This document shows, piece after piece, positions 1 to 56,111 of a stretch of DNA of 64,000 nt. The stretch's first letter is position 1. Each line of letters begins with the position of its first letter. The notes under the pieces were generated by a model, which was given only the letters and a program-made list of their open reading frames with translations, ran no database searches and had not been told where the DNA came from. Source of the DNA: a virus; IMG/VR virus record IMGVR_UViG_3300027852_000001, positions 1 to 64,000 of that record. One strand, 5' to 3'. Position numbers and translations under genes: made by a program.

Positions 1-60
1 ATATTTATCATTAACTTCAAGAATTTCTTCCTTACCCCATGGCTTATCTACTGTTTTCAT
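1..60 (-). CDS. cupin-fold protein, N-terminal fragment (gene runs off the left edge)
   Basis: ATG at 60..58 overlaps the upstream TGA stop (ATGA). Hand translation gives MKTVDKPWGKEEILEVNDKY. KPWG.E is typical of cupin sugar isomerase/epimerase N-termini. Confidence 0.4.
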   Translation of the reverse strand, partial: MKTVDKPWGKEEILEVNDKY

Positions 61-1061
61 AACATACCCCCAAAAGCTAATGAATAATGATCTATTACTT
101 TCATGATTTCACATATAATGCTTTCCCTAATATCACAATTTAATTCTAACTGACTTATTATTTCCTTATATCTGTATCCATTAAAATGGTAGTGTCCAGC
201 AATTATTGCACACAGAAAACGATTTTTTGTAGCACTACTCCATTTTTTCCAATTATTCCCAATAATAGTTTCATGTATAAATGGGTTTATGTCAATCCCA
301 TAAATTATAGCTTGTGATAACACGTGAGATGTCTGAACAACTCCAAGTTGAGGGGCTATGTTGAGAGAATCTACTATACCATCTCTATACTTAATTTGTT
401 CTGTAGTTAAATAATCAGCATTATGTTCTTTTAATTTTGTTCCACGACTATGTAGAACAGCACTCATTTTTCTAACAATATCTGACCTAAATGTACCAGC
501 ATTGCCTATTTCGTGGACAAGACTTCCTGTTTGTACTACATAAAAAACGGGATTGGTTACACCCTGACATGTTTCTACATCTGTAATGATACGATTTACA
601 TCTGTTTCACTCACCCCTATATTCTTATCAGTACCTATTTCAAACATGACATCAGAACGAATAGACATAGCGTATTTCATTAATTCTAATGTGTGTTCCA
701 ACTTGTCTGCATGAGACATCCATTCAGCCAGACACAGATCTATGTGTATTAAATCAAATCCATTATCTAGATCACATTTTATGGTTTTCTTTGTATTGTC
801 AATACTATTTTCTTTTTCGTTTCCAAAACTTGGACCACAGTGGTCTCTACAAATAACTACATCTGCTTGTGGATATTTATTTCTCATTATTGCAATATAT
901 TCCATATATTGTTTTGTCCTGAAAACATATCCTCTTTCGGTGTCTATTTGATTTCTAGAACATATCAACATCAATTGTTTACAAAACTGACTAGAATACC
1001 TAAAAATAGCTTCAATAACTTCTTTGCTCATCGGACCAAAAGCCAAATTAGATGTTAACAT
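57..1061 (-). CDS. GatZ/KbaZ-family (tagatose-bisphosphate aldolase-like) TIM-barrel protein
   Basis: 334 aa. Motif series is colinear with E. coli GatZ as I recall it: SRNQI (TSNQV), RDHCGP (GDHLGP), IHIDLC (IHLDAS), EIGTD (VIGTE), VVQTG (VVQPG), EHNADY (AHSTDY), NIAPQLG (KVGPALT). Confidence 0.65.
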   Translation of the reverse strand: MLTSNLAFGPMSKEVIEAIFRYSSQFCKQLMLICSRNQIDTERGYVFRTKQYMEYIAIMRNKYPQADVVICRDHCGPSFGNEKENSIDNTKKTIKCDLDNGFDLIHIDLCLAEWMSHADKLEHTLELMKYAMSIRSDVMFEIGTDKNIGVSETDVNRIITDVETCQGVTNPVFYVVQTGSLVHEIGNAGTFRSDIVRKMSAVLHSRGTKLKEHNADYLTTEQIKYRDGIVDSLNIAPQLGVVQTSHVLSQAIIYGIDINPFIHETIIGNNWKKWSSATKNRFLCAIIAGHYHFNGYRYKEIISQLELNCDIRESIICEIMKVIDHYSLAFGGML

Positions 1062-1422
1062 TTTTTAACCCCTCATTTCTCGTTATATTTACACACCCAG
1101 CCGTATTTAATTCTCTTCCTGGTTTAATGTCATTAATAACAACCCTTTGCCCTCTTGGTAAACCCATTAATAAGATATCATAAAATAACCCATTACTGTT
1201 AAGCTGCTGCTCTGTTAAGCATCTCAAACTTTCTGGTCTACCAGTAGTTAGAACAATAGAATATCCATTAAAACACCACTCTCTGAATGCTTCTGTCACT
1301 CCTGGAAGTAGCTCGCATTTCTTTGTTAAAATAGCAGAAATATCTCCGTGATGTTTAAAAATACATCCATCAATATCACAAAATACGGTTTTAATATGCA
1401 TAGCATGGTCATTATGTTGCAT
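1048..1422 (-). CDS. HAD-superfamily phosphatase (small)
   Basis: 124 aa. HAD motif I FCDIDGCIF (DxD) and motif II-like VLTTGR. 11-nt overlap with the polymerase stop and 14-nt overlap with the next gene. Confidence 0.6.
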   Translation of the reverse strand: MQHNDHAMHIKTVFCDIDGCIFKHHGDISAILTKKCELLPGVTEAFREWCFNGYSIVLTTGRPESLRCLTEQQLNSNGLFYDILLMGLPRGQRVVINDIKPGRELNTAGCVNITRNEGLKNVNI

Positions 1423-3751
1423 TTATCAATTCCTTACTAGTAGTTTTTTCCTCAGCTTGTTCATTTACTAAGTTTTGAATTTCCCAAAGTTTATCTAGAG
1501 CAACAACACCAAGAAAATCAAACTTTACGGCTCCGAGATTTTCTGCATCTGCCATTTCTAATCCTACAACCCTGTCTTTATTGCTAGCATCATAAGCCAA
1601 TGGAACAAATTCATCTATTGGTCTATCTGCTATTACTATTCCGGCAGCATGTTTAGATTGTGATTTTTTAGTTCCTTCAATTCTTATTGCCTGATCAAAC
1701 AATGGTTTATACCATTCATATGCTTTTAGAACTTGGTCTATATTATGAACTGACCACTGTAATACACCATATCTATCACCAAATTCTTCTCTGGCTTGTC
1801 TTAATTCGTCAGAGATAGAAGCTTCATCTGGCATGTGCTTTGTTATTTCGTTACACAAATCGTGTGGGGTCATGCTAATAGAATTTTCATCATCTCCCTC
1901 TTTTAGTGCTTTTACTTTCATTAAATGTTTTACTGTATCTGGATTAGCCCTAAAGACTTCTTTAAGAGCAGCTTTTCCCTGAAGTCTACCAAATGTTGCC
2001 ATTTGCGCTACATATTTTTCTCCCCAACGATCCTTCAAGTAGTCTATCACCTCTCCTCTAAATACCACACCAATGTCAGTATCTATGTCTGGAAGACTTA
2101 CGTGTCCACTATGTGTTTTAACTTCTCTCGACTTATCTATTTCGTCATGCCCAGCAATCACTACTCCCAACCCATATAATAAGTGAGAATTTGATGGATT
2201 TGTTGATGGTTTTTGTTCAATCATGTCCTTTATGTACATCCACATTCTTGGATTATTTTCATCAATCCACTTTACTTCTTTTTTCATCTCGTCAGTGAAC
2301 TGTATGTTGTGTTTTTGCATTCTTTTTGCTAGACATAAAGAGACTTCTTTTCTGTCAGAATCCATATCTCTAGTATGGAGTAGTTCAAAATTATTAGATA
2401 TCCAAGTCATAAAATCAACGTGCCCTGCATTGAAATGTGGGGGAATATTTCTACTAACATTATAGAATCTTTCAAAATACAACCCGTATTCTATTGGATC
2501 TATACCAGTTATCCCTGTTACAAAGTTAACCAAAGATCCAGCACCAGACCCCCTACCTTTTCCCCTTGGTTTATTCATCTTGTCTACAAAATTACAAACA
2601 TCCCATACTATTAAAAAGTAATCAGATAGTCCAGCTTCTTTTATTACGACCAATTCTCTTTTTAATCTATCCCAATATATTTTTTTATCACTAGGAGATA
2701 GGTGAGATAGTTTTTCTTTTGCGCCACAAATACACAGGTACTCAAGATATTCATCGGAGTTTAGTCCTAGTGATTTTGATTCGTCATTTGTAAAAACAGG
2801 AAGATATGGGTTGTGTCTAAGACTAGAATATTCTATTTGATCGGCTATTTCGATAGTCGTAGCAAGTTCTTTTTCTGTAAAATTTTCTAACATTTCGGCG
2901 TATGATGGTATGTAGTAATTTTCAGATATGAAAAAGTCCATTATATCACCAGTTTGCTGGAATCTTCTCTCTTGCTCCTCTTTCGTAGTATGCATTTGAG
3001 CACACAATAAAAGTCTTTGATCTTCTGCATCCTCTTTCCTGGCATAGTGTGCGTCTATTGTAGCTACTGTTGGAATACCAGTTTCTTCACTGAGTTTCCT
3101 TAAACAATCTACTACAACACCTTGAATGCCCATTCCTTCATCTTGTAATTCTAGGTAATAGTTTCCTTTTCCAAATACTGCGTAATGTTTTCTCATAATT
3201 GCTTTCCCAACTTCTATCCAATCTGGTTTTAGAAATTTTCTAGAACCATCTATGTTTCCGTTGTGTCCAGCTATTATTGCCGATCTAAAATCAGTAAATA
3301 ACGACTTAGGAAGTTCTCCTGCTATACACGCTGTCAGGAAAATAAGATTTCCCTTCTTGGCAAATGGGGCAATGTCATCCAAATGTAATCTTGGTTTTCT
3401 ATAAAAATATTCCGGAAGATTTGATTTACTTACCATAGCCATCAAATCTTTTATACCTTCGTTATTTCTTGCTAGTACTATTAAGTGGTGTCTTTGGTTG
3501 TTTTTTGTATTTTTTATAGTAGCATCTTGATCACATATATACATTTCACAACCAATTATTGGTTTGATTCCTTTTTTTGTTGCTGAATCATAGAATGTTT
3601 TCATAGCAGATATATTTCCATGATCAGTTATTGCCGTAGCTGGTAAACCTAATTCTACACACCTATCCACTATGTCTTTGGGAGATGCAAGACCATCAAG
3701 AAGACTATAGTATGAGTGGCAATGTAGCGGTACGTAGGTCTTTTTAGACAC
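1412..3751 (-). CDS. dnaE: DNA polymerase III alpha (DnaE-type), N-terminal part only: PHP, palm and thumb, ending about 30 aa after the KFDFLG motif
   Basis: PHP motifs YVPLHCHSYYSLLDG, ITDHGN, IIGCEMY, IDAHYA. Palm motifs GRGSGAGSLV, FERFYN, LPDIDTDI, AVKFDFLGV. No FQLES/RPGP/YQEQ/FNKSH finger motifs anywhere in the window. The track start (3790) is TTG. I prefer the GTG at 3751, six nt after an AAGGAGA Shine-Dalgarno. Confidence 0.85.
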   Translation of the reverse strand: MSKKTYVPLHCHSYYSLLDGLASPKDIVDRCVELGLPATAITDHGNISAMKTFYDSATKKGIKPIIGCEMYICDQDATIKNTKNNQRHHLIVLARNNEGIKDLMAMVSKSNLPEYFYRKPRLHLDDIAPFAKKGNLIFLTACIAGELPKSLFTDFRSAIIAGHNGNIDGSRKFLKPDWIEVGKAIMRKHYAVFGKGNYYLELQDEGMGIQGVVVDCLRKLSEETGIPTVATIDAHYARKEDAEDQRLLLCAQMHTTKEEQERRFQQTGDIMDFFISENYYIPSYAEMLENFTEKELATTIEIADQIEYSSLRHNPYLPVFTNDESKSLGLNSDEYLEYLCICGAKEKLSHLSPSDKKIYWDRLKRELVVIKEAGLSDYFLIVWDVCNFVDKMNKPRGKGRGSGAGSLVNFVTGITGIDPIEYGLYFERFYNVSRNIPPHFNAGHVDFMTWISNNFELLHTRDMDSDRKEVSLCLAKRMQKHNIQFTDEMKKEVKWIDENNPRMWMYIKDMIEQKPSTNPSNSHLLYGLGVVIAGHDEIDKSREVKTHSGHVSLPDIDTDIGVVFRGEVIDYLKDRWGEKYVAQMATFGRLQGKAALKEVFRANPDTVKHLMKVKALKEGDDENSISMTPHDLCNEITKHMPDEASISDELRQAREEFGDRYGVLQWSVHNIDQVLKAYEWYKPLFDQAIRIEGTKKSQSKHAAGIVIADRPIDEFVPLAYDASNKDRVVGLEMADAENLGAVKFDFLGVVALDKLWEIQNLVNEQAEEKTTSKELINAT

Positions 3752-4697
3752 AAGGGGTCTCCTTAGTTGACGTTTTCTGCTGATCTCCAAAGCTTAAACT
3801 GCTATACTTATGGTAAACATATTCACTGCCAAGTGTATGTAAGTCTGACCAAACTCTTTGACATATGTCGTTTTTATTGAAACTACACATACGACAACTC
3901 CAGCTACGATTTCTTTGTATTAATGTGTCTTTTAGGACGGTGGTCATAAATTTATGCAACATAGCAATAGTTATCACTAAATCTTCTTGGGATAAACTTA
4001 TTGTAATAGGACCACCATCATTAGTATAATAAAATGTTATTATTACATTTTTATATTTTGGATACAAATAACAAACTGCCAAATGATATAATCTTGGCTG
4101 TATTTCATTCATCAAAGAAATTTCATCTATTTCATTTTGTGTATGAAAATTTTGTCTTTTCCCCGTTTTCCAATCAATTATCTCAATAGTGTCTTCGTCT
4201 ATTTGTCTAACAAAATCAATAAAACCACGTACAGCAAATTGATGTGGATTTTTATCAGAATCATAACACGTCCATTCATCACCTGGCATTGCTATTGAAA
4301 ACCATTGCTCTGAATCTATAACATCGATTAAATACGGATTATAATATTTGTCTTCAAGGATAGATTCTAGTGCTATTCTACATTTTTTAAAATCTGCAGC
4401 TTCCTTAAAATCTCCAGTATTTTTGTCTATTCTGGTAGTAGTTTTTCTTATTTCTACTTCTGGATTATCAGCAACATGTTCATCCCACGATCTATGTAAA
4501 AGCCACATTGGGTCCACATTTGTTTTACCTCGTTTTTTTAATTTTATCATCCATTCAAAAACTTGGTGAACAATTGTCCCCTGTAATGCTGCTTTACCAG
4601 ATTTCGATTTCATCTGTAATATATAATTCATGAAATACGAAAACTGGCAATGATTGTATGTTCCTATTGAACTGGCACTACATTTAACTATTTTCAT
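3744..4697 (-). CDS. PD-(D/E)XK nuclease, Cas4/RecB-like with Fe-S cysteines (copy 1)
   Basis: N-terminal Cys (KCSAS), core GFIDFV...IEIIDWKTGK, C-terminal CRMCSFNKNDIC. Start moved to the ATG at 4697 (MKIVKC), which overlaps the upstream stop by 14 nt. Confidence 0.7.
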   Translation of the reverse strand: MKIVKCSASSIGTYNHCQFSYFMNYILQMKSKSGKAALQGTIVHQVFEWMIKLKKRGKTNVDPMWLLHRSWDEHVADNPEVEIRKTTTRIDKNTGDFKEAADFKKCRIALESILEDKYYNPYLIDVIDSEQWFSIAMPGDEWTCYDSDKNPHQFAVRGFIDFVRQIDEDTIEIIDWKTGKRQNFHTQNEIDEISLMNEIQPRLYHLAVCYLYPKYKNVIITFYYTNDGGPITISLSQEDLVITIAMLHKFMTTVLKDTLIQRNRSWSCRMCSFNKNDICQRVWSDLHTLGSEYVYHKYSSLSFGDQQKTSTKETPCV

Positions 4698-5061
4698 TAT
4701 TTCTTCTACCTGTTTGCCAATTAAAGCGATCATCCAAATCTGTTCTGCCTGTTTCCTGATAATGAACGATACACATAACATTAAAAATTATGGCAGATGC
4801 ATGATCTTCATCCTTATCTCCAGCGACAAACTGAAATACGTGTCTCATTAAACTAGCTATACACCTAGATACTGGAATCCCTTTTGTCCAATTGTGTTCA
4901 TCATACTTCTCCGCACCTCTAGCGTAGTGAATAGCTAGTCTTTTCAATGCTGTTGGTGGTATTAGATCGAATCTAGGCTTACCATCCTCAGTATCTCTAA
5001 CAGCCCCTGTATTAAAATTTTGTCTCTTACCAGAATCTTTGACTTCAAAATCATCAGGCAT
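4684..5061 (-). CDS. dATP/dGTP pyrophosphohydrolase-domain protein (DUF5664 / MazZ-like)
   Basis: GKPRFDLIPPTALKRLAIHYARGAEKYDEHNWTKG...ASLMRHVFQF..GDKDEDHASAI matches the family signature as I recall it (GKPR.DLIPP..L..L......GA.KY...NW.KG). Confidence 0.5.
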   Translation of the reverse strand: MPDDFEVKDSGKRQNFNTGAVRDTEDGKPRFDLIPPTALKRLAIHYARGAEKYDEHNWTKGIPVSRCIASLMRHVFQFVAGDKDEDHASAIIFNVMCIVHYQETGRTDLDDRFNWQTGRRNNENS

Positions 5062-5062
5062 T

Positions 5063-6232
5063 TTAGTTCTCCAAAATATAATTATCAGAAAACATTGTTG
5101 TTTTCGATGTTTTCTCTAAAATAGGACCAAGTTTTTTTGTTATGTCTTCTGGAATCATATCACCAATATCATTTGCGGTATCTGGCGTGACACAGAATAC
5201 TCTAAAATAGTAATTAAGTTCTTTTTTTAATCTATCCATAGCATCATTACCAGCGGCGTCATTATCAAACATACATATTACCGTCAATGCTCCTGAATTT
5301 TGTAGTATCAATCTCTGTTGTCTGGAGATACTTACTCCAAGTAATGCTACGCTATTCTTAATACCAGCGTTCTCACAGGCCCAAACATCACCCGGACCTT
5401 CACACAATATAACCGTACCAGTCTTGCTGATATACGGCTTAGCATACCAAACATTATATAGACACGACTCACTACTCAATCCCTTTGAGTGTTTCCATTT
5501 AGTGTAAAGTCCTGCATATTTCTTTTCTGGACATGTTTGTCTTTGTGGATGGTGATACATTCCACATTTATCACATTTGTCATATATACTCCTACCCGAC
5601 CAACCGACTACATATCTTCCTGTAGAATCAAGTATTGGGAAAAATGCTCTTTGATACATTGGCTTATTACGTGTATCACAAAATGAAATATGGTATTTAG
5701 CTATGATATCTTGGCTTACCCCTCTATTTGGATAATATACTTGATCTGGGTTTAACATCCCGACAACAGTTGCCAATGGAGTTCCTTTTTGTTTTGATGA
5801 AGATTGTTTTTTTCTGTGGTTCTTTATTATCTTAGCAATCTCTACATCCTGTGCAGTTTCTTCCCCACCATCACAGTCGTCCAACCCAAGAACCTTAGCA
5901 ACAAAACTTACTGATTGTATAAAACTCCAATCTTTTTCTGTCTTGCGACTCATTGTCCCACGTACTAGTCCAAAAATACTATTTGATGGTCCGGTTATTG
6001 ATGAATTATGACACCCTCTTGTTTTACATTGCCAGTGATTTGAGTTTATTGCCCAAAACATTGCTCTATCATTGTTTCCACCATGCACTGGACATGCGGC
6101 TTGCAAATAATCTCGTCTTTCTGTAAATTCTATTCCCATTGCGTCAAGAACTTCAGCTACTCGCTCACACGCGCGTGCTTGTATAAAATCAACATTTAAT
6201 TTCTTAAACTGTTTCATTTGTTTTATTTTCAA
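5063..6232 (-). CDS. dnaG: DNA primase (DnaG-like zinc finger plus TOPRIM)
   Basis: Zinc finger CPVHGGNNDRAMFW...WQCKTRGCH. TOPRIM motifs ILCEGPGDVWA and MFDNDAAGNDA. Confidence 0.85.
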   Translation of the reverse strand: MKIKQMKQFKKLNVDFIQARACERVAEVLDAMGIEFTERRDYLQAACPVHGGNNDRAMFWAINSNHWQCKTRGCHNSSITGPSNSIFGLVRGTMSRKTEKDWSFIQSVSFVAKVLGLDDCDGGEETAQDVEIAKIIKNHRKKQSSSKQKGTPLATVVGMLNPDQVYYPNRGVSQDIIAKYHISFCDTRNKPMYQRAFFPILDSTGRYVVGWSGRSIYDKCDKCGMYHHPQRQTCPEKKYAGLYTKWKHSKGLSSESCLYNVWYAKPYISKTGTVILCEGPGDVWACENAGIKNSVALLGVSISRQQRLILQNSGALTVICMFDNDAAGNDAMDRLKKELNYYFRVFCVTPDTANDIGDMIPEDITKKLGPILEKTSKTTMFSDNYILEN

Positions 6233-11381: not shown

Positions 11382-11661
11382 CGGCCCTCATAGATTCACT
11401 TGGTGTCATACTATGAACACCCTTACCCATATCCAATGCCCTTCTCTTATCTGTTGGTTTTATTCTTAACACCCTATCATCCATATTTCTTGCTGTTGTT
11501 GGTTGTGTTTCTTCGGCTTCCTTATCAAGAAATCCATCAAGCAATAACATAGCTTCATTGATAAATGCTTGCTTGGTCTTTGTGTCTTTTCTTCCAAGAT
11601 TAACTTTTGATTCTTGCAAAAATTTTTCAAAAGTTTTTCTAAATTTCTTATACCCAGTCAT
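11326..11661 (-). CDS. hypothetical protein
   Basis: 111-aa minus-strand ORF. Its 3' end overlaps the downstream gene's start by 56 nt, so that gene's start is uncertain. Confidence 0.45.
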   Translation of the reverse strand: MTGYKKFRKTFEKFLQESKVNLGRKDTKTKQAFINEAMLLLDGFLDKEAEETQPTTARNMDDRVLRIKPTDKRRALDMGKGVHSMTPSESMRADEQLNRSPYGDRAEGGDE

Positions 11662-11968
11662 TTCGCAATCTCCTTTGTGCTACAAGTAGTGATGTCGGAT
11701 TTTTAATTTCAAGAAATTCTACATATTTATCAAAACAATTCTTGCTACATTTTGTAAGATTCCAAAACGATAATCCTCGTTCTCTGTCTTTTTTATATAT
11801 ATCATGACTTGTTGGGTTAAACAAGTCTCCGCTAGAAGAAGCCATAACAAAATATAAATTAGTATTACCATCTATCGATTTAATTATAGCTACAACATTG
11901 CTTGCAGAAGACAAACAATTGTTTGAGACACATGAAAATCCATTAAAATCAATTGATGTTATTTTCAC
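11648..11968 (-). CDS. hypothetical protein
   Basis: 106-aa minus-strand ORF. Confidence 0.5.
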   Translation of the reverse strand: MKITSIDFNGFSCVSNNCLSSASNVVAIIKSIDGNTNLYFVMASSSGDLFNPTSHDIYKKDRERGLSFWNLTKCSKNCFDKYVEFLEIKNPTSLLVAQRRLRNDWV

Positions 11969-12294
11969 TTACTTCTCACACTAAAAACTACATCAGAATC
12001 TGGAGCACCGTCTTCTTGTTCTATAATTTCAAAAAACATAAAATCATCAGGAGCACCTGGATAAAATTGTCCAACTATTTGTTCTACCTGAGAATATTGT
12101 CCGCAATAACCACATTTTGCTACTACTCTAGTAATCACGTTTTGGGAACCAACACTGTCGGATGTTGCCTTTTGTATTTGTAGTAATTTTTTTTCACAGC
12201 CGATACATTTCAATTCACACATCCCAGCGTTGCGTAATCCCTGTAACTGACGTTTGTTTAAATTACCATTCATATTAATTTCTGTTTTATCCAT
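11965..12294 (-). CDS. hypothetical zinc-ribbon protein
   Basis: 109 aa with CELKCIGCEKK...CGYCGQ. ATGA-type 4-nt overlap. Confidence 0.5.
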   Translation of the reverse strand: MDKTEINMNGNLNKRQLQGLRNAGMCELKCIGCEKKLLQIQKATSDSVGSQNVITRVVAKCGYCGQYSQVEQIVGQFYPGAPDDFMFFEIIEQEDGAPDSDVVFSVRSK

Positions 12295-12620
12295 TAATCT
12301 TTCTCTCCAGTTTGAATATATTTTGTGGGATCTTTTAGAATGTCTTTATCTATTTTTGATTTATTTTCTCTCCACCAAGGACGACAATTAAGTTTATTCT
12401 TACCTTCACCTAATCTATCTTTTGGCTTAGATCGAGATTTTGGTCTACCTGTACATGGATTTTCTGTTCCCTTTACTATAGCGGCAGCACCACTCCCTAT
12501 CAATTTAACCAAACTGTCTTTACCACATTTCTTACAAGTAATTAGTGGTTCTACTAGCATTCCGTGGAATGCATCAAAATGATCTCCACAGTTTTCACAT
12601 TCATATTCATATGTTGGCAT
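12294..12620 (-). CDS. FmdB-family zinc-ribbon protein
   Basis: N-terminus MPTYEYECENCGDHFDAF...ITCKKCGK is the CxxC_CxxC_SSSS (FmdB) signature. Confidence 0.7.
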   Translation of the reverse strand: MPTYEYECENCGDHFDAFHGMLVEPLITCKKCGKDSLVKLIGSGAAAIVKGTENPCTGRPKSRSKPKDRLGEGKNKLNCRPWWRENKSKIDKDILKDPTKYIQTGEKD

Positions 12621-12626
12621 ACTTAA

Positions 12627-13253
12627 TTATACCTCCTGTTGTCTTTCTCGTTCCAAAAAAGTTCCATATTTTTTGGTAAATTGAGCCAATCTTTGTTTGT
12701 CGTTATACGAAAATTTTCCATCAGTAGTTTCAAGTGAGATGTAATGTTTTATTAATCTAACAGCTTCTGGTGATTCATGATTTACTTTTTTAACAGCACT
12801 GGTGAGCATTCTAAGCATATCTCCTCTTTTCATAAAAGCTCTAATTAGTAATAAACCAGCACCAACAAAAATAATAACAATCACTGAACTTCCGATAACA
12901 ACCCATCCAGCCCCGTTGTAGTTAATTGTTTCAGCTTGAATTTCATTTTTCCATACAGAAATGTCTTCTAGACTACATGTTATTTCTTCTGCAACTTGAT
13001 TAACTTGTTCTATTTGACAAGTAATATCTTCTATGTTTTCCGCAACAACAGTAGCATCTGCTTTTTGGTCTATTAAGTTTTCCAAAGAACCCATATCATT
13101 TCTTACACCCTGTATTTCAGTTTTTACCGCTTCGGGAGAAAGGCATGATACTAATAGCAAGACGAAAAAGACAGAGGCAAAACATTGAATTAATTTCTTG
13201 ACGATCTTCGTCTTATTTCTTTGCGTTGTGCTTTTTTCTTTCTTTTGGTACAT
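12627..13253 (-). CDS. putative lipoprotein / membrane protein with coiled coil and C-terminal TM
   Basis: Signal-like FASVFFVLLLVSC (lipobox LVSC) and later TM GWVVIGSSVIVIIFVGAGLLLI. Overlaps the RNase H 3' end by 64 nt, so the start is uncertain. Confidence 0.5.
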   Translation of the reverse strand: MYQKKEKSTTQRNKTKIVKKLIQCFASVFFVLLLVSCLSPEAVKTEIQGVRNDMGSLENLIDQKADATVVAENIEDITCQIEQVNQVAEEITCSLEDISVWKNEIQAETINYNGAGWVVIGSSVIVIIFVGAGLLLIRAFMKRGDMLRMLTSAVKKVNHESPEAVRLIKHYISLETTDGKFSYNDKQRLAQFTKKYGTFLERERQQEV

Positions 13254-35086: not shown

Positions 35087-35341
35087 ATGAAAATTTTATT
35101 AACTAAGATAACGCTGTCTTTACTTATTTGTCTATTTTCTACTGGATGTCTTGTTAGGACATCAGGTGGTGGTAGTTGGGAGTTATATGTTGGAGTTAGA
35201 ACCCAACAAACAGGAGAACTACCGGCAGAAGTAGAGGTTGAATCAAAAATGTTGGATTTCTTGACGGAAGATGGTACGACATCAGAGAAAATAGCATCGA
35301 TAATTAAAGGACTTATTTGGGCCGCTGGATATTTTCTTTAA
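35087..35341 (+). CDS. lipoprotein (the only convincing plus-strand gene)
   Basis: Strong SD AGGAGG six nt before the ATG. MKILLTKITLSLLICLFSTGC carries the lipobox STGC. Its 3' end overlaps the convergent minus-strand gene by 4 nt. Confidence 0.7.
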   Translation: MKILLTKITLSLLICLFSTGCLVRTSGGGSWELYVGVRTQQTGELPAEVEVESKMLDFLTEDGTTSEKIASIIKGLIWAAGYFL

Positions 35342-35550
35342 TTATATCTGTTGGTTATTAACAACCATTGTTCGTAGTCGTGGACATAAATTCCAGATTT
35401 ACCACTTTTTGTTAATATTCCTGTTTGACCATCAAACCATCTAATGAAATATTCTACTTCTCCTTCAGGATGATGTTCTTTTATTAGATCAATTGTTACA
35501 AATACAACTCCGTCTTCTGTTAGATATTTTTCTTTTGGTATTCTATTCAT
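35338..35550 (-). CDS. hypothetical protein
   Basis: 70-aa minus-strand ORF. Confidence 0.5.
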   Translation of the reverse strand: MNRIPKEKYLTEDGVVFVTIDLIKEHHPEGEVEYFIRWFDGQTGILTKSGKSGIYVHDYEQWLLITNRYN

Positions 35551-35756
35551 TAGAGTCTTTCCGACATACTCTTTATTTCACTAAGCTTGACAACTTCGAT
35601 CTTACTTGAAGGTACTTGTTCTCCAGTTCCTTTATTCTTCTTTGATCCAACAAAGAATTTTACTGTAATACTATTTCCTCCAAGATCTACTATTTCGCAA
35701 GGACAATAAGTTGCATCTTCTGTAATTAAGACTACGGTGCTTCCCTTTTCAATCAT
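35550..35756 (-). CDS. hypothetical protein
   Basis: 68-aa ORF with a 1-nt overlap with the downstream start. Confidence 0.5.
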   Translation of the reverse strand: MIEKGSTVVLITEDATYCPCEIVDLGGNSITVKFFVGSKKNKGTGEQVPSSKIEVVKLSEIKSMSERL

Positions 35757-35918: not shown

Positions 35919-36119
35919 TTATTTAAACCATTTACTTATATAGTATAGAATAGTTACAGCAAGAAAAGTTGCTGTTCCTATACCAAAAACTGTTCCTGGT
36001 ACAATCCATAATGGTAGTGTTATAATCCACCAAGACCATGTTGTAACAATTGTTTCTCCAAACCCAAGTTTCAAGAAAAACAAAATTAAAAACATAAGTG
36101 TGAAAAATCCAAATTTCAT
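35919..36119 (-). CDS. small membrane protein (2 TM)
   Basis: FFTLMFLILFFLKLGF and ITLPLWIVPGTVFGIGTATFLAVTILYY. Confidence 0.55.
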   Translation of the reverse strand: MKFGFFTLMFLILFFLKLGFGETIVTTWSWWIITLPLWIVPGTVFGIGTATFLAVTILYYISKWFK

Positions 36120-36120
36120 A

Positions 36121-36441
36121 TTATATTCTTATTAATCCTATTTTAAAACCATTTACGGTTTGTGTTGCATGAACAATATTAAAAAAGATCCATTCAAGTC
36201 CAAGCTGTGGTGCCACACTAATTTGTCTAGAACTGCATCCTTTTATTTTTGTCAAATCAACCTTACACTGAAGAGTTGCGCTATTTTCCGTAACTTCTGT
36301 AATTGTTCCTGAGATTATATCGCAAGATACGGATGGTATTAAATCTACTCTGACAAAACACTCCCTTCTATAGTTTTCTCTACGAATTTCCTCTCCATGC
36401 GGGTCTACACAATCGTTCCATATTTTTTGTAGCCAATCCAT
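36121..36441 (-). CDS. hypothetical protein (downstream of the Ubl operon)
   Basis: 106-aa minus-strand ORF. Confidence 0.5.
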   Translation of the reverse strand: MDWLQKIWNDCVDPHGEEIRRENYRRECFVRVDLIPSVSCDIISGTITEVTENSATLQCKVDLTKIKGCSSRQISVAPQLGLEWIFFNIVHATQTVNGFKIGLIRI

Positions 36442-36451
36442 TTATTACACC

Positions 36452-36688
36452 TCATAGGTATGATGCTGTTGAATTAAGAGGCATCATCTCATATTCGTCT
36501 AGCCAAGTTTTTTCACATTCTTCACATCTTACTAATTGATAGAAGCAACCAGAATCTCCAGGGACTAGACCTCCTTTTAAATCGAGTTTACCATAAGATC
36601 TACAGAACACACATCTATTTTCGTCACAATATGGGGCTCTTAGTTTTAAATCTCCCAAGACAATTCTATTGATTAATCGGAACACCAT
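36452..36688 (-). CDS. zinc-ribbon protein translationally coupled to E1
   Basis: 78 aa with CDENRCVFC...C...CEEC. Its start overlaps the E1 3' end by 23 nt. Confidence 0.55.
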   Translation of the reverse strand: MVFRLINRIVLGDLKLRAPYCDENRCVFCRSYGKLDLKGGLVPGDSGCFYQLVRCEECEKTWLDEYEMMPLNSTASYL

Positions 36689-37334
36689 GTGCTTCCATTT
36701 CGTTTGTTAGTAAATTTAGACTGACATCACAATCTACTTCGCATCCTCTTAGCCATTTTGCAAATTGTGCTACCATCATTCCTGCTGCTATACTTGAACA
36801 ATAGAATGTTGTTTTTGCAGTACATGTTCCACGGTAGGCTTCGGAAGCCTTGAATAGTGTTGTTCTGTAGTGTTCAGCTGATGCTTTGTTGAATACCGAA
36901 AGAATTCTCATATATTCAGCGCTCATTCTTCCGTCTATGAATAGATCAGATCTGTCGGATATTTTATTAAAAATTGATTCTCTTACTTCTATCTTATCAA
37001 CACAACAGAATACAACCCCACCAGGAAATAGTAATGGATTGAATCTGGAATTAGATAATGAGACATCAATAGAGCCATTGACTTTGAGACAAGATTCAGA
37101 AACTGCTCCTACTTTAGAGCATCCAAGGTCTGTTTCGTTAAACCCCTGTGCTCCTAGGTTTTCTATTTGTACCGTATCAAAGTCTATTAGCTTGATTTTC
37201 GGGACGCCTATGGTCGCAAGTTGTATAGCTACTTGTCTTCCAATAGCTCCTACTCCAATAACAGTTGCTTGAATTCTGTCTAGTGAATCTGGAGGAACCA
37301 ATTCTCTTTGTCTAATATTTCTGTTTGGTGTCAT
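36666..37334 (-). CDS. ThiF/MoeB-type E1-like adenylyltransferase
   Basis: Rossmann VIGVGAIGRQVA (GxGxxG), then KLIDFDTVQIENLGAQ (E1 D.D.V...NL..Q). The ATG at 37334 follows a GGAG SD and shares one base with the JAB TAA stop (TAATG). Confidence 0.75.
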   Translation of the reverse strand: MTPNRNIRQRELVPPDSLDRIQATVIGVGAIGRQVAIQLATIGVPKIKLIDFDTVQIENLGAQGFNETDLGCSKVGAVSESCLKVNGSIDVSLSNSRFNPLLFPGGVVFCCVDKIEVRESIFNKISDRSDLFIDGRMSAEYMRILSVFNKASAEHYRTTLFKASEAYRGTCTAKTTFYCSSIAAGMMVAQFAKWLRGCEVDCDVSLNLLTNEMEAHGVPINQ

Positions 37335-38158
37335 TATGTATTCTCCATGATCATTTCTGTGGTTATCGGATTTTTCCTTATCCAAGAATGCACTGCACTC
37401 TCTAGTAACTTACCAATTGGTTTATTGATTTTTGTAAATTTATCTTGACCAATCTGTTCTTCATAATACGTGTCCATTTCTTGGTCATATAAATTCCATC
37501 TTTCCGTGATTGGATTCCAAAATTCGACATCTCCGTCGTCATCATAGCTAATTGTTAAATCACTATAATCAAATTCATTTTGACATTGGCTTATGATGTC
37601 TGAGTCGATCCCCTCGACAAGCATTCTTTCTGGAATTACTTTTAATTTATATTCTTCTTCCCATTTTTCTTCGGAAGATCCTGGAAATTCACTATCCCAG
37701 GCAATGGCAGTTTTTAATTGTGTAATAGTTCCTGGACCTATATTAACCTTTAATCTACATGATGTTTTTCCACCCTTGGCGAGAATAAACATTATTGCCC
37801 AATTTGGGTGAGAAAAAGCATCTTTAAAATTTTTCTCATCTATAGAAGATGGGTTTGGACTATCCCCTGGGTGTGTATGTATTAGGATATTAGAACACTG
37901 CCATGGCATCAGACTATCGTCCAACATTTCATCTAAAAAATCAGCAATATCTTCTGGATCAAATTCAAATGTACATGAAGTGCATCGTGATTTTATCAAG
38001 CGGAAGTCTGTCACTAGAAGTGGGTCTTCTGTGTCGGTAATTCCATATCCTGCTACTTCTGTATCTCCATAATCCCTCATAAACAATAGTTTGCTCCAGG
38101 CATATGGAGTGAAGCGTATTTCGTTGTTGAATGAAGTCATTGGGTTAGTATTATTCAT
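37334..38158 (-). CDS. JAB/MPN (JAMM) metallopeptidase
   Basis: Full JAMM signature: E34 (DTEVAGYG) and H94-T-H96-PGDSPNP-S104-SI-D107 (HxH-x7-S-x2-D). Confidence 0.8.
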   Translation of the reverse strand: MNNTNPMTSFNNEIRFTPYAWSKLLFMRDYGDTEVAGYGITDTEDPLLVTDFRLIKSRCTSCTFEFDPEDIADFLDEMLDDSLMPWQCSNILIHTHPGDSPNPSSIDEKNFKDAFSHPNWAIMFILAKGGKTSCRLKVNIGPGTITQLKTAIAWDSEFPGSSEEKWEEEYKLKVIPERMLVEGIDSDIISQCQNEFDYSDLTISYDDDGDVEFWNPITERWNLYDQEMDTYYEEQIGQDKFTKINKPIGKLLESAVHSWIRKNPITTEMIMENT

Positions 38159-39449
38159 TTATTGTTTCTTTCAGTAGACATCCACTATCTAAATTATAAC
38201 AATCTGTACATAATTCTCTATTGCAATTATCGCAACACTTTGTTTTACAAGAAGAACAAAGAATTTTTAAACATGTCTCACAGGTTGAAGCACATTCTGG
38301 ACAAATTATTTCACCACATTCAGAACATTCACTTAATTCTGAACAATCTTCACAATAGACTACGTCGCAAGAAGAACAAACTACCCTACAGTCTGAACAT
38401 ACAATATTTTCACACTTTTCACAATTTTCTGCACAACCTAGACAAGTATTTCTTCCACAGGTAGAGCATTCTACTCTACATTCTGAGCAGGTTCCTGTTC
38501 CACATGAACCACACTTACTCATACAACTGTCACATAATGTTTCATTGCATTCGCCACATTGGCTAGCACATGAATCACATACCATGTTGTCACAATCTAT
38601 ACATTGACGATGCCATTCTTCAGCGCACGAAGAACATAATGTATCACCACATTCCACGCATATAGACATGTCATCTTCTGGTCGATAGTTTTCACATCCA
38701 TCACAAAATATTTCTCCTTCGTGAGACGGATTGTACCAAGAACACAATTCGTCGTATGGAGATGATGAATTATATGTCCTTAATATTGATTCAACAATTG
38801 TGAATAAGTCTTCTAATCTACCAGATAGAACTGCTTGTTCTATCATCTCATCCCCCTCACCTTGACATAGAGAGCCAGATGAGTTTACGTGTGGGTGAAA
38901 ATATCCCTTGTTAGAACATATCGGATAAGTAGCTTCTACAGACAAAAACGATAACATCGATTTTGTTAAATCTAGAACAATTCTCATGTTTCCGAAATTG
39001 AATTCTCTATCCCCATCAGTAAGTTCTACGTCAGAGATTATGACTGATAATTGTCCGTTTTTGTAGGTTACATTATCTGCTCCTCGGTCTGATACAATAG
39101 CAGATATTTCTTCCATAACATGTTTTAGACTAAGTTTATTCTTACCACCAAGACTGAGGACATGCGACATCCTATTTTTAATGTTATCCATTTTCCATGA
39201 TATGTCATCAACACAAGGAGATAATACATTTTCAAATAATTGTTTAACACAACTTGTGCTAGTTATTCTTTGTTTTGACTTAATTATAGCAACTATTACT
39301 TTTGATAGTCTGTTTGCTTTTTCTTGTCGTCGTTGTACGTATGACATATCTAATACTGAATTAAGTTCACCATCTTCTATTTCGTGTGAGTATTTACTAA
39401 AGAATTCTAGAAATTTATTAGCTGCTCTTATAATTAATTTTTGGTTCAT
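38151..39449 (-). CDS. E2 (UBC-like) ubiquitin-conjugating-type protein fused to a C-terminal CxxC repeat array
   Basis: FHPHVNSSGSLC (aa 184-195) has the same spacing as eukaryotic E2 HPN[IV]xxxGx[IL]C. Residues 249-424 carry 44 Cys in about ten C-x2-C-x4-C-x2-C-x3 units. The stop overlaps the JAB start by 8 nt (ATGAATAA). Confidence 0.7.
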   Translation of the reverse strand: MNQKLIIRAANKFLEFFSKYSHEIEDGELNSVLDMSYVQRRQEKANRLSKVIVAIIKSKQRITSTSCVKQLFENVLSPCVDDISWKMDNIKNRMSHVLSLGGKNKLSLKHVMEEISAIVSDRGADNVTYKNGQLSVIISDVELTDGDREFNFGNMRIVLDLTKSMLSFLSVEATYPICSNKGYFHPHVNSSGSLCQGEGDEMIEQAVLSGRLEDLFTIVESILRTYNSSSPYDELCSWYNPSHEGEIFCDGCENYRPEDDMSICVECGDTLCSSCAEEWHRQCIDCDNMVCDSCASQCGECNETLCDSCMSKCGSCGTGTCSECRVECSTCGRNTCLGCAENCEKCENIVCSDCRVVCSSCDVVYCEDCSELSECSECGEIICPECASTCETCLKILCSSCKTKCCDNCNRELCTDCYNLDSGCLLKETINE

Positions 39450-39471
39450 GGTTATATCTTTTGGATATTTA

Positions 39472-39507
39472 CAAAAAAAAAGGGAGGGGGCTTAACACCC
39501 CCTCCCT
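39472..39507 (-). terminator. intrinsic terminator between the Ubl gene and the E2 gene
   Basis: Perfect 10-bp G/C-rich stem (39481-39490 with 39498-39507), 7-nt loop, then about 8 U on the minus-strand RNA (A-run 39473-39480). There is no T-run on the plus side. Confidence 0.8.
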
Positions 39508-39554
39508 CGTGTCTTCAGAATACAAAGATCAAAAATTCTATCGCAATCTTATAT

Positions 39555-39791
39555 CTAGTTTGCGCCTTCTACCTTCGATGGAGTAAGAGATACCCGATCT
39601 CCATCCTGGAGCACATATTCGCCATATGCCTGTACACTGGTTCCATTGGACCTTACCTTGATAACAAAATCGTCTAGGTCTCCACCGTCAAAAGAAACAT
39701 TCAGAAACGCATCTAGTGTTGTTCCTTCAGCTACTGGGAAACGTACTGGAACTCCATTGCCACTATTTGATACCATGAAAACATCGATCAT
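39555..39791 (-). CDS. ubiquitin-like beta-grasp protein (ThiS/MoaD-like)
   Basis: 78 aa from the ATG at 39791 (GGAG SD; the track start at 39851 is TTG). L.DGDRVSL.P.KVEG tail resembles ThiS/MoaD ..GD.V.i...vgGG. Ends in VEGAN. Confidence 0.6.
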   Translation of the reverse strand: MIDVFMVSNSGNGVPVRFPVAEGTTLDAFLNVSFDGGDLDDFVIKVRSNGTSVQAYGEYVLQDGDRVSLTPSKVEGAN

Positions 39792-39874
39792 TTTTTTTCT
39801 CCGCAAATAATTCGTTCTGTTGTTAGTAATTACGATACGCAAAAAATACAAGAATTAGACTCAAGACACTATAT

Positions 39875-40084
39875 TTAGTTTGTATGCAAATTATTATCTC
39901 CAATTATTTCCGAAAAACTAGAAACAAAACGATTCATTTCATCTTCTATTTCGCTAACTTTTGAGCAATTATCTGATAAATCTTTAATACACTTGAAGAG
40001 CAACAGAGGAAGTGCTTCTTTTCTCAGTTCTCCTAATTGTAGTCTTGTTGATATCTCACTCCATTCTTGCTGTGTTTTATACAT
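39875..40084 (-). CDS. hypothetical protein
   Basis: 69-aa minus-strand ORF. Confidence 0.5.
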   Translation of the reverse strand: MYKTQQEWSEISTRLQLGELRKEALPLLLFKCIKDLSDNCSKVSEIEDEMNRFVSSFSEIIGDNNLHTN

Positions 40085-40101
40085 ACTGTATCTCTCAATA
40101 T

Positions 40102-40323
40102 TTAAACGTAATTTGGCTTGTGTCTGTGTGTTGTTTGGTTTTTCTTAGCGAAATTGACTATTTCACTAGTTGACCAAGGAGTCCTTCCTCCTACACTATC
40201 TATGTCAATTGTGATTGAATTAGCATCTGGATACAATTCACTAGCTTTAATACCAGCATCATGACACGAAACAGACAGAATAGGAACACGAACGCCGTCC
40301 ACGAGAACCAAATACAATCCCAT
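40102..40323 (-). CDS. hypothetical protein
   Basis: Start moved to MGLYLVLVDG (ATG at 40323). The track's N-terminal extension runs through the GC-rich structured spacer. Confidence 0.5.
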   Translation of the reverse strand: MGLYLVLVDGVRVPILSVSCHDAGIKASELYPDANSITIDIDSVGGRTPWSTSEIVNFAKKNQTTHRHKPNYV

Positions 40324-40358
40324 CTTAATTTTCCTTAAATGAATAGACGTGAGAAACA

Positions 40359-40443
40359 GAGGGGCTTCGGCAGTCAAATATAAGCTGGGGTCACCCTGGC
40401 CGCGCGACCAGTCTCTCGGTCTCATATTCCGCCGAAGACCCTC
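40359..40443 (-). ncRNA. GC-rich structured leader/spacer element (unassigned class)
   Basis: On the minus-strand RNA, 40443-40429 pairs with 40373-40359 (15 positions: 13 WC, 1 GU, 1 mismatch). This encloses about 55 nt that contain a CUGGUC-GCGC-GGCCAG hairpin. It fills the 129-nt gap between two CDS. Confidence 0.45.
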
Positions 40444-40452
40444 GGTCTCTCA

Positions 40453-40809
40453 TTACTTTGTTTTCCTAACTAAATCTAAACGTCTTACAATAAAGATCAA
40501 TACTTCATTAAGCTCGACGAGAAATGCTATCTGTTGTTGGTCTTTTTCTTTTAGTAGGTCATAAATTACATAAAACCCATTCCACTTACCTACTTTATAA
40601 TTTGCATCTTTCAACTGTTTGTTCAGGTCATCGATTGAGATATCTACCAAATCTTGTCCCTTCGTCTCATACCATTCTCCGTCTAGCCCATAAGCAAATG
40701 TTGTTTTTTCTTTATTTCGTTTAGAAATTTTCTTTACAATTTTTATACTAATTAAAATAACAAGGAACCACGGTGTTATTAATAAAATTGTAAATATGAT
40801 ATTTGTCAT
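40453..40809 (-). CDS. membrane-anchored hypothetical protein
   Basis: N-terminal TM IIFTILLITPWFLVILISIKIV. 118 aa. Confidence 0.5.
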   Translation of the reverse strand: MTNIIFTILLITPWFLVILISIKIVKKISKRNKEKTTFAYGLDGEWYETKGQDLVDISIDDLNKQLKDANYKVGKWNGFYVIYDLLKEKDQQQIAFLVELNEVLIFIVRRLDLVRKTK

Positions 40810-41913: not shown

Positions 41914-41987
41914 TAAGCCGGGTGGGACTCGAACCCACGACTTTCGGATTAGAAATCCGATGCTCTGTCCAACTGAGCTACCGGCTC
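41914..41987 (-). tRNA. tRNA-Arg(UCU): tRNA-Arg (anticodon UCU)
   Basis: 74-nt cloverleaf: GAGCCGG-UA-GCUC/AGUUGGACA/GAGC-A-UCGGA/UUUCUAA/UCCGA-AAGUC-GUGGG/UUCGAGU/CCCAC-CCGGCUU-A. Confidence 0.9.
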
Positions 41988-42570: not shown

Positions 42571-42643
42571 TGGGCCGGGTGGGGCTCGAACCCACGACCA
42601 CCCGCTTAAAAGGCGGATGCTCTACCGACTGAGCTACCGGCCC
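42571..42643 (-). tRNA. tRNA-Lys(UUU): tRNA-Lys (anticodon UUU)
   Basis: 73-nt cloverleaf: GGGCCGG-UA-GCUC/AGUCGGUA/GAGC-A-UCCGC/CUUUUAA/GCGGG-UGGUC-GUGGG/UUCGAGC/CCCAC-CCGGCCC-A. Confidence 0.9.
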
Positions 42644-48131: not shown

Positions 48132-48206
48132 TGGGCCGAATGGGATTTGAACCCATGACCTCGTGTTTATAAGACGCGTGCTCTAACCAGGCTGAGCTAC
48201 CGGCCC
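48132..48206 (-). tRNA. tRNA-Ile(UAU): tRNA-Ile (anticodon UAU)
   Basis: 75-nt cloverleaf: GGGCCGG-UA-GCUC/AGCCUGGUUA/GAGC-A-CGCGU/CUUAUAA/ACACG-AGGUC-AUGGG/UUCAAAU/CCCAU-UCGGCCC-A. One C-A mismatch in the anticodon stem. Confidence 0.85.
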
Positions 48207-56037: not shown

Positions 56038-56111
56038 TGGGGGCACAGGGATTCGAACCCTGGACCTAACGATTATGAGTCGTTTGCTCTAACCAACTGA
56101 GCTACACCCCC
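56038..56111 (-). tRNA. tRNA-Met(CAU): tRNA with CAU anticodon (elongator Met, or Ile2 if lysidinylated)
   Basis: 74 nt: GGGGGUG-UA-GCUC/AGUUGGUUA/GAGC-A-AACGA/CUCAUAA/UCGUU-AGGUC-CAGGG/UUCGAAU/CCCUG-UGCCCCC-A. No initiator features (paired 1:72, no GGG/CCC anticodon stem). Confidence 0.85.

Follow-up and report, generated by a model that had tools for sequence, protein, structure and literature searches.

The window analysed here, a 64,000-nucleotide (nt) stretch of viral DNA (positions 1 to 64,000 of IMG/VR record IMGVR_UViG_3300027852_000001), is a fragment of a large phage genome. Its minus strand carries a cassette of four genes, encoding a ubiquitin-like protein (Ubl), a protein resembling ubiquitin-conjugating (E2) enzymes, a JAB/JAMM peptidase and a minimal activating enzyme (E1), and the E2-like protein ends in a long array of CxxC motifs, which we call knuckles. 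According to our analysis, this protein belongs to a large undescribed family, of which it is a phage-borne representative with a lengthened array, and the cassette can be regarded as a variant of the Bil-like conjugation systems. Our preferred reading, to which we assign a probability of about 0.5, is that the tail consists of structural zinc sites arranged in a chain, a B-box/RING-like module fused to an E2, which would act as a built-in ligase (E3)-like adaptor or scaffold. Bacterial Ubl conjugation, as known from CBASS Cap2/3, Bil and Bub, is a new and active field in which the choice of targets without an E3 is an open question. In the family to which the window protein belongs, an E2-like enzyme is always fused to a B-box/RING-like array, and this looks like an E2-E3 chimera.

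The cysteine array

An earlier, sequence-only reading of this DNA had counted 44 cysteines between residues 249 and 424 of the E2-like protein, and the translation confirms this count and maps it exactly to positions 38178–38705. The protein has 49 Cys in total, with Cys making up 25% of the tail and 2% of the remainder (5 Cys in the other 256 residues), and such an array is far beyond chance. We found 21 non-overlapping CxxC motifs, separated by spacers of 11,4,7,4,3,4,3,4,3,4,3,4,3,4,5,4,3,4,4,4 residues. The unit of about 15 residues described in that reading, C-x2-C-x4-C-x2-C-x3, is indeed present in ten copies, with a head knuckle and its x11 loop in front of them, and the string quoted there as an example starts at residue 291. 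Autocorrelation of the Cys positions peaks at a lag of 15 residues (28 pairs) in the window protein, and the same peak is seen in seven of eight homologues, the exception being the degenerate P0007. At the DNA level, Tandem Repeats Finder detected no array-wide tandem repeat, which suggests that the units are old and diverged and have been kept at the protein level; a recent expansion of DNA repeats was rejected for the same reason.

The eight Cys of the head module (Table 1) are all invariant in alignment A4 (127 sequences). All 20 knuckle Cys are invariant in the array alignment A7, and nearly all are invariant or at least 90% conserved in A3 (40 sequences). Outside the cysteines the array is variable, with a mean entropy of 2.87 bits at its non-Cys positions compared to 1.93 bits in the E2-like core, and the only semi-conserved non-Cys positions are a Gly/Asp after the A-knuckles and a hydrophobic residue before the B-knuckles (A and B being the two knuckles of one repeat unit, A-x4-B-x3). 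Two Cys of the window protein, C405 and C424, lie outside the CxxC pattern, and the protein ends with CTDC-YNLDSG-C-LL. The tail is strongly acidic (isoelectric point (pI) 4.06; 37 D/E vs 12 K/R), and the canonical arrays described below have a median net charge of −9; direct binding of nucleic acid is therefore unlikely.

With its 44 Cys, counting C405 and C424 besides the 21 knuckles, the tail would have ligands for up to 11 Zn(Cys)4 sites. The number of repeats changes one unit at a time, and the spacer and type of the cap are constant. This favours sequential sites, in which the head would pair with A1, each A(i+1) with the B(i) before it, and the cap with B(n). On the other hand, to our knowledge all zinc fingers with x2-x4 spacers place adjacent knuckles in different, cross-braced sites, and this precedent favours an interleaved arrangement. 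Two other kinds of Cys-rich protein were considered and rejected: a metallothionein, which would be a small stand-alone protein with irregular CxC/CxxC clusters, bridging thiolates and no hydrophobic core positions, given the strict CxxC motifs, the 15-residue period, the conserved Gly and hydrophobic positions, the fusion to an enzyme and the absence of a Pfam match, and an Fe-S protein, on motif grounds.

A large family with ten knuckles as the norm

The tail is not peculiar to this one protein but distinguishes a very large unnamed family, ten knuckles being the norm among its members. Our first search returned only eight relatives, whose CxxC arrays differ in length. When a profile of the N-terminal 246 residues was searched exhaustively, at least 3,623 cluster representatives (clusters at 50% identity) were found at E ≤ 1e-3 and 797 at E ≤ 1e-30, and a word-indexed second search found 1,144 proteins at E ≤ 1e-10. 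The 120 listed of these 1,144 proteins are all named ‘hypothetical protein’ in their source and none has a Pfam domain; likewise, no family in Pfam, PHROGs, PADLOC or NCBIfam was found for the window protein or its canonical relatives. A homology search with the tail only gave no match, probably due to composition filtering.

The canonical member is a protein of about 345 amino acids (aa) with a helical N-terminus, a core containing an invariant HPH-x6-C-x-G, the array and an acidic linker. In its array, four A-x4-B-x3 units lie between a head knuckle and a cap knuckle, following the general pattern CxxC-x11-[CxxC-x4-CxxC-x3]n-CxxC. Exactly ten CxxC motifs are present in 101 of 156 family sequences, and the identical spacer string 11,4,3,4,3,4,3,4,5 or 6 is found in 212 of 348 tails. 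Variants with 8, 12 or 14 knuckles differ by whole 15-residue units. Every complete protein among the loci and proteins that we examined keeps at least the head module, and family sequences with 0–2 knuckles are truncated or frameshifted calls.

Some members have additional features. Many bacterial proteins finish, after the acidic linker, with a conserved motif similar to V(Q/H)(P/S)xx(L/V)G(Q/E)AAV(P/S)A (for example the protein at 1634–2734 of locus L040, P0018 and P0022). This motif bears a loose resemblance to the Ubl tail ...TPTKIEGA, and it could serve the JAB or the E1 as a docking peptide or a pseudo-substrate. In the phage clade the motif is missing, and most of the proteins have H-x-C-L-L at their end instead. 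In P0010 (733 aa) the whole E2-like-plus-array protein is present as a tandem duplicate, and in P0044 (783 aa) an N-terminal GYF domain and a trypsin-like (HtrA/MarP-type) protease are fused ahead of the E2-like domain, while P0151 (440 aa) and P0009 look like frameshifted read-throughs from E2 into JAB.

Similarity of the array to B-box and RING fingers

The consensus of B-box1 is C-x2-C-x7-12-C-x2-C-x4-C-x2-C-x3-6-H-x2-8-H. The head of the array, C-x2-C-x11-C-x2-C-x4-C-x2-C-x3/7-C-x2-C (x3 in canonical members, x7 in the window protein), has this spacing with Cys replacing the two His. The distance from A(i) to A(i+1) is again 11 residues, and the array can thus be read as a series of overlapping B-box patterns. 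When the whole protein was compared with PDB sequences by phmmer, the RING of RNF8 was matched weakly (E 0.005, residues 231–313), as were B-box, FYVE and p44 fingers. A profile built from 29 canonical arrays matched the B-box1 of MID1 (2FFW, E 2.1e-4; 2JUN, 9.6e-4) as well as the FYVE domain of WDFY3 (1.9e-3) and the RING of TRAF3 (5.8e-3).

An AlphaFold model built on the 127-sequence alignment (predicted local distance difference test (pLDDT) 77, predicted template modelling score 0.63) covers residues 250–340 with a pLDDT of 77–95, mostly above 85; within the repeat array the values are 80–95 as far as about residue 340. In this model a short strand precedes each knuckle, the knuckles sit at hairpin turns, and a helix at residues 273–279 follows knuckle 3, as in RING fingers. 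Foldseek searches of PDB with both of our models, this one and a first, poorer one, found nothing at E ≤ 0.001, and the best matches, all non-significant, were to tandem PHD fingers, the RING of TRIM28 and ZCCHC4. The poorer model also gave RBR ligases at E 0.06–0.7, again non-significant; with nothing beyond such matches, and without C6HC spacing, an RBR/IBR architecture of RING1-IBR-RING2 with a catalytic Cys was rejected.

Among predicted viral structures (BFVD) there were 12 matches at E ≤ 1e-3, all to uncharacterised phage or giant-virus proteins. Judged from three source labels, amidoligase (A0A6J7X5D3), LIM (A0A6J7X2B6) and ‘prokaryotic metallothionein’ (A0A8S5MS56), these matches are apparently Cys-rich, and similar CxxC arrays may be a recurrent module on different phage enzymes.

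The cassette

The E2-like protein is encoded between a ThiS-like Ubl and a JAB peptidase followed by a ThiF-type E1. This order, Ubl-E2-JAB-E1 without a separate E3, is that of Bil operons. The E2-like gene is real: homologues exist, it shares its strand with the other large genes of the phage, and it is translationally coupled to the next gene, the E2/JAB junction overlapping via ATGAATAA (JAB start over E2 stop). The JAB/E1 junction overlaps as well, via TAATG.

The Ubl of the window is a single ThiS-like domain, and Pfam ThiS is matched by 16 of 18 members of the Ubl family (best E 4.8e-5). The C-terminal motif TPxK(I/V)(E/D)G(A/S/P) is near-invariant across related loci, and in stop-to-stop reading frames it is followed, after the Gly and the A/S/P, by 0–44 unconserved residues (for example at 902–1363 of L040, and in L063, L069 and L047). 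The sequences thus suggest that C-terminal processing of the Ubl is obligatory and sometimes removes a long pro-peptide. The peptidase matches Pfam Prok-JAB at E 2e-5 with 24.9 bits, just below the curated cut-off of 25 bits, and PADLOC JAB models too; its JAMM motif, HxHx7Sx2D, is intact (37838–37879). The E1 matches Pfam ThiF at E 9.5e-22, and PADLOC models of Cap2-type E1-E2 proteins cover its adenylation part only. E1 lengths are 222–239 aa, and those of the E1 family 218–253 aa, with one ThiF domain. No separate E3 gene was found in the cassette, and the next downstream open reading frame (ORF) is not conserved in related loci. This 78-aa zinc-ribbon-like ORF (36452–36688, minus strand) has two CxxC-type pairs and overlaps the E1 stop by 23 nt; it was considered as a fifth cassette member and rejected, as it was not found in any related locus.

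The E2-like core

In the structural model the core has a pLDDT of mostly 80–97 (74–97 by 10-residue block), and the order of its secondary-structure elements fits the ubiquitin-conjugating (UBC) fold: helix, meander, active-site loop and C-terminal helices. Residues H185, P186, H187, C195 and G197 of the putative catalytic motif are invariant in alignments A2, A4 and A6, and HPH[VIL] is present in 155 of 156 family sequences. The motif HPH-x6/7-C has the spacing from the HPN-type motif to the Cys that is seen in E2s (about 7–8 residues), with His rather than Asn as the third residue, and the HPHVNSSGSLC of the window protein is close to the HPNINSNGSIC of UBE2D2. In at least 60 loci the gene occupies the E2 slot of a Ubl-E2-JAB-E1 cassette. 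Given this operon context, the invariant HPH-x6/7-C motif and the secondary-structure topology, the core is probably an E2, if a highly divergent one.

Several comparisons weigh against this assignment. In hhalign runs against human E2 sequences, the motif and the preceding GxFxI strand aligned in register, with E-values that are not significant, 0.03–0.14 over all runs and 0.11–0.14 against a set of four human E2s. Neither Pfam UQ_con nor Prok-E2 was matched at E ≤ 1, profiles of the core and of the N-terminal region found no E2 among PDB sequences, only coiled-coil noise, and in a Foldseek search of PDB with the confident model no UBC fold appeared among the top 50. The N-terminal domain might not be an E2 at all, its HPH...C being convergent and the protein serving as another kind of partner, such as a substrate, regulator or metal chaperone of the Ubl/E1/JAB trio. 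Such a reading would account for the lack of support for a UBC fold from hidden Markov model (HMM) searches and Foldseek despite a confident model. It would leave unexplained why H185, P186, H187 and C195 are invariant with a spacing near HPN-x7-C, why hhalign finds the correct register including the preceding strand, why the secondary-structure order matches UBC and why the gene sits at the E2 position in so many loci, and we hold it distinctly unlikely. The term ‘E2-like’, introduced in the sequence-only reading, thus draws its backing from the position in the cassette and from an invariant motif in register with HPN...Cys, and finds none in the HMM and Foldseek tests.

Canonical E2s have nothing comparable to the helical bundle at the N-terminus, which all through the family is conserved; docking of the E1 or oligomerisation might be its role.

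The role of the array

The Cys pattern, the family, the operon, the variation in repeat number and the B-box/RING-like similarity are seen in the sequences themselves, whereas zinc binding, E2 catalysis and an E3-like or adaptor role of the tail are inferred. By analogy with BilC, the JAB would trim the ThiS-like Ubl after its conserved Gly, exposing a ...K(I/V)(E/D)G end. Adenylation by the minimal ThiF-type E1 would follow, perhaps with a thioester at the loop Cys of this enzyme, and the Ubl would then pass to Cys195 of the E2-like core. The fused head module would act in a B-box/RING-like manner beside the E2~Ubl active site. The rod made up by the knuckle repeats would be stiff and very acidic, with a surface that evolves fast; it could present or select targets or keep the enzyme at a distance from them, and so provide reach, multivalency or variable target recognition. 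Because the cassette encodes no separate E3, the fused array would supply the E3-like function. If this is true, we expect about 5 Zn per canonical member and about 11 for the window protein, and a thioester on Cys195. The sequence-only reading had likewise suggested a zinc-knuckle chain working as a built-in E3-like adaptor; this idea gains support from the matches of the array to MID1 B-box1 (profile, E 2e-4) and to RING fingers.

Other observations weigh against the zinc-chain adaptor. The E-values of the B-box and RING matches are modest, the Cys-rich composition inflates these matches, and the Pfam zf-B_box and RING models gave no match. The pLDDT of the model is low beyond residue ~348, so that the last third of the window array is of low confidence. 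The predicted head looks RING-like, and sequential pairing, suggested by the repeat-number variants and caps, conflicts with the cross-braced precedents. Finally, the low conservation of the array surface suits a plain spacer as well as it suits a variable recognition surface.

The array could also be a passive rod, stiff, acidic and zinc-stapled, with no E3-like part in catalysis or recognition. It would then measure out a distance as a ruler or spacer, serve as a scaffold for oligomerisation (a multimerisation scaffold was also among the suggestions of the sequence-only reading) or mimic nucleic acid, and the repeat number would set its length. A rod of this kind fits a sequence in which only Cys, alternate Gly/Asp and hydrophobic positions are conserved and the remaining surface is highly variable, and it also fits the strong acidity and the changes in length by whole 15-aa units. 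It fits less well with a head module that has B-box1/RING spacing and profile similarity, considering that B-box/RING modules activate E2s in eukaryotes. Moreover, the operon holds no other candidate for target selection, and some viral members keep the head and lose the regular repeats, so that the head seems to be the essential part; overall, we regard a purely passive role as unlikely. With 44 thiolates of the zinc type, one can also picture a redox or metal sensor, a redox sensor having been suggested in the sequence-only reading too. Similar to Hsp33 or the zinc anti-sigma factors, it would have its tail unfolded by thiolate oxidation or by zinc loss during infection or stress, switching the E2 on or off. 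Known thiol switches, however, use one or two sites rather than 5–11 in a rigid repeat, the expansion of the repeat number in phages would have no obvious meaning for a switch, and no redox partner is encoded in the operon; a sensor is, in our view, very unlikely. Lastly, one or more Cys of the array could be catalytic, taking over the Ubl from Cys195 by transthiolation before it reaches the target, in the manner of RBR, HECT or RCR E3 ligases. The RBR ligases (ARIH1/2, HOIP, HOIL-1, RNF144) among the weak Foldseek matches and the few extra Cys outside CxxC in the window protein and its relatives (C405, C424) would be in line with a relay, but those matches are non-significant (E ≥ 0.06), every conserved Cys lies in a CxxC pair with zinc-ligand spacing, and canonical members do not conserve the extra Cys; we find a relay highly improbable.

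Distribution and phage expansion

When genomes (one per species) were scanned with back-translated THPHV-x5-CEG, we found at least 120 loci, almost all of them in Planctomycetota (Pirellulales, Planctomycetaceae, Phycisphaerae). Cultured carriers include Novipirellula rosea, Maioricimonas sp. JC845, Planctomicrobium sp. SH661 and Allorhodopirellula solitaria, and several genomes, including metagenome-assembled genomes of Planctomycetota, have two or three copies of the cassette. The sequence-only reading had raised the possibility that homologous operons lack the array. All 124 related loci that we examined have the E2-like ORF, and their complete proteins retain the head. The full set of Ubl, E2, JAB and E1 is present in 60 of the 124, and the remainder are partial, probably through truncation at the ends of the 8-kb loci.

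Beside one bacterial copy, that of L004, lie a Tn7-like TnsB (rve/Mu-transpos_C), TniB, TniQ and an IS110 transposase (1–6110 and 11549–12871), and at 4555–7502 of L040 there are a 550-aa ORF and also a 432-aa ORF, the latter of which looks reverse-transcriptase-like by eye only. Mobile-element neighbours of this kind are a context typical of mobile defence cargo, which is only suggestive.

Motif scans of IMG/VR yielded 21 loci, 17 of them with an E2-like ORF. On contigs of 55–181 kb, the arrays of these viral proteins have 17 knuckles (L126, L131), 18 (L143), 19 (L136), 20 (L129, L133) or 21 (L135), and P0002 and P0005 have 15 and 26, respectively, compared to a maximum of 12 in the genome set. 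Most of the expanded phage proteins end with C-x2-C-x1-3-H-x-C-(L/I)-L, the exceptions being P0005, L126 and L131. Four further viral members (L127, L128, L130, L138) keep the head and have irregular, Cys-poor tails; since the regular repeats can be lost in this way while the head is kept, the head is the constant part of the array and the repeats are the variable part. By this comparison, the 21 knuckles of the window protein are an expansion, about twofold, of a 10-knuckle, ancestor-like state. Bacterial members from Planctomycetota have stayed at 10 knuckles, and the phage lineage that includes the window has lengthened the array to 15–26.

Relation to known conjugation systems

The characterised bacterial families are Type II CBASS, Type I/II Bil and Type I/II Bub (PMC11601596). 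The papers on these families that we consulted mention no E2 or other component with a tail of this kind, in agreement with the sequence-only reading, which knew of none. Iyer et al. 2006 make no mention of Planctomycetes, and our full-text literature searches for such a system found nothing, although an earlier computational mention may exist.

One of the closest known systems is BilABCD, which has the same gene order of Ubl, E2, JAB/JAMM and E1 and no separate E3 (PMC10557695; 10.1101/2023.09.04.556158; PMC11601596). In addition, many members of our Ubl family have a conserved Gly followed by a short overhang, and in Bil the JAB enzyme removes such an overhang. At the same time, the Bil E1 is a protein of ~70 kDa with IAD-AAD-CYS organisation while the cassette E1 is a single ThiF domain of 222–239 aa, no zinc array has been described for the Bil E2 while the cassette protein has a predicted array of 5–11 sites and an N-terminal helical extension, Type I Bil Ubls have two beta-grasp domains while the cassette Ubl has a single ThiS-like one, and the window copy is phage-borne. 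In PADLOC, whose release was not confirmed to hold Bil models, neither the E2 nor the Ubl had a significant match, the best one of the E2 being to an unrelated candidate model (E 0.014). A Bil system in the strict sense is not what the window encodes, given the single ThiF domain of its E1 and an E2 that the models of PADLOC, Pfam and NCBIfam all fail to match.

CBASS (Cap2/Cap3) and Bub (6E/DUF6527) share with the cassette Ubl conjugation, ThiF-type adenylation domains and JAB peptidases, and the Bub E1 is also of a minimal, homodimeric type (PMC11601596). Cap2, however, is an E2-E1 fusion that conjugates the CD-NTase, and Bub has Ubl-E2 or E2-E1 fusions, a DUF6527 protease and a Ser-based E2; neither Cap2 nor Bub has a CxxC array on its E2 (PMC11601596). 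Eukaryote-like operons of archaea and bacteria, such as that of Caldiarchaeum subterraneum, are also reported to combine a Ubl, E1, E2, JAB-type peptidase and RING-class finger (PMC5654768, PMC3082918). There, the RING is reported to be a small protein of its own, and the sequences of the E1 and E2 to be recognisable as eukaryote-like (PMC5654768, PMC3082918). In our cassette, by contrast, the zinc module is a repeated part of the E2-like protein itself, and this E2 diverges too far for HMMs. The fingers that the array resembles, B-box1 and RING (MID1, RNF8, TRAF3, TRIM28), share with it the ligand spacing of the head and, in the case of RING fingers, the helix after the third knuckle, next to the modest profile and sequence matches given above. 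The array differs from them in that its ligands are all Cys, in having 10–26 knuckles with only x3/x4 spacers, in being fused in cis to an E2-like domain, and in having no solved structure similar to it at E ≤ 0.001.

It is possible, and we suggest this only tentatively, that the cassette represents a further undescribed class of prokaryotic conjugation system, abundant in Planctomycetota and captured by a lineage of large phages. The E3 function would be fused to the E2 as a new linear multi-zinc fold of overlapping B-boxes, for which PDB holds no match; the length of this fold would be evolvable, and phages would have doubled it, for example to reach or bind other targets in conflicts with hosts or with other phages. 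If the array works as we propose, it would offer a simple model of E3-type function in prokaryotes and of how this function arose there, and Planctomycetota, together with their mobile elements, would hold a class of candidate systems for defence or counter-defence. It would also mean that phages carry and remodel such conjugation systems and, possibly, that the array is a zinc fold not yet present among solved structures.

Phage context and features of the window

All 21 ORFs of at least 250 aa in the window are on the minus strand. The GC content is 31–45%, mostly ~35%, and there are five tRNAs (Table 1). PHROG matches in the window include a DNA polymerase, a primase, a DnaB-type helicase, the large subunit of a ribonucleotide reductase and an RNA ligase, and an AAA ATPase of phrog_8638 is also encoded. 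The own cluster of the Cys-rich protein is recorded on a 168-kb contig. Searches against 50,697 GenBank phage records gave no match for the operon (36000–40500, blastn), nor for the E2-like protein or its tail (tblastn); the E1 of the window matches only distant ThiF genes of crAss-like phages in these records.

Table 1. Coordinates of the cassette, its protein features and the tRNAs in the 64,000-nt window.
Feature	Position	Strand	Description
Ubl gene	39555–39791	-	78 aa from Met21 of the listed ORF; ThiS-like beta-grasp, end ...TPSKVEG/AN
E2-like protein with C-terminal CxxC array	38151–39449	-	432 aa
N-terminal basic helical region, residues 1–107	39129–39449	-	pI 9.65; three long helices in AlphaFold model
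E2-like core, residues 108–245	38715–39128	-	helix, beta-meander, HPH...Cys loop, three helices (model)
Putative catalytic motif HPHVNSSGSLCQG	38859–38897	-	H185, P186, H187, C195, G197
Head module, CxxC-x11-CxxC-x4-CxxC-x7-CxxC, residues 249–286	38592–38705	-	B-box1/RING-like spacing
Repeat array, residues 291–417	38199–38579	-	17 further CxxC knuckles, alternating x3/x4 spacers
Terminal Cys424-Leu-Leu	38172–38180	-	counterpart of the phage-clade H-x-C-L-L cap
JAB/JAMM peptidase	37334–38158	-	274 aa; Prok-JAB plus motif
Minimal E1, single ThiF-type adenylation domain	36666–37334	-	222 aa from ATG at 37334
E1 GxGxxG	37239–37256	-	
E1 conserved RG(T/S)CT loop Cys	36819–36833	-	
tRNA Arg-TCT	41914–41987		
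tRNA Lys-TTT	42571–42643		
tRNA Ile-TAT	48132–48206		
tRNA Leu-CAA	55020–55103		
tRNA Met-CAT	56038–56111		

Directly downstream of the cassette, on the same strand, are small ORFs of 68, 70 and 66 aa (35338–35756 and 35919–36119). Homologues of these ORFs are found in the cassette-bearing IMG/VR loci L129, L136, L132 and L140. Several small neighbour genes of the window are common to L129, L132 and L136, which therefore form with it one phage lineage with conserved local synteny.

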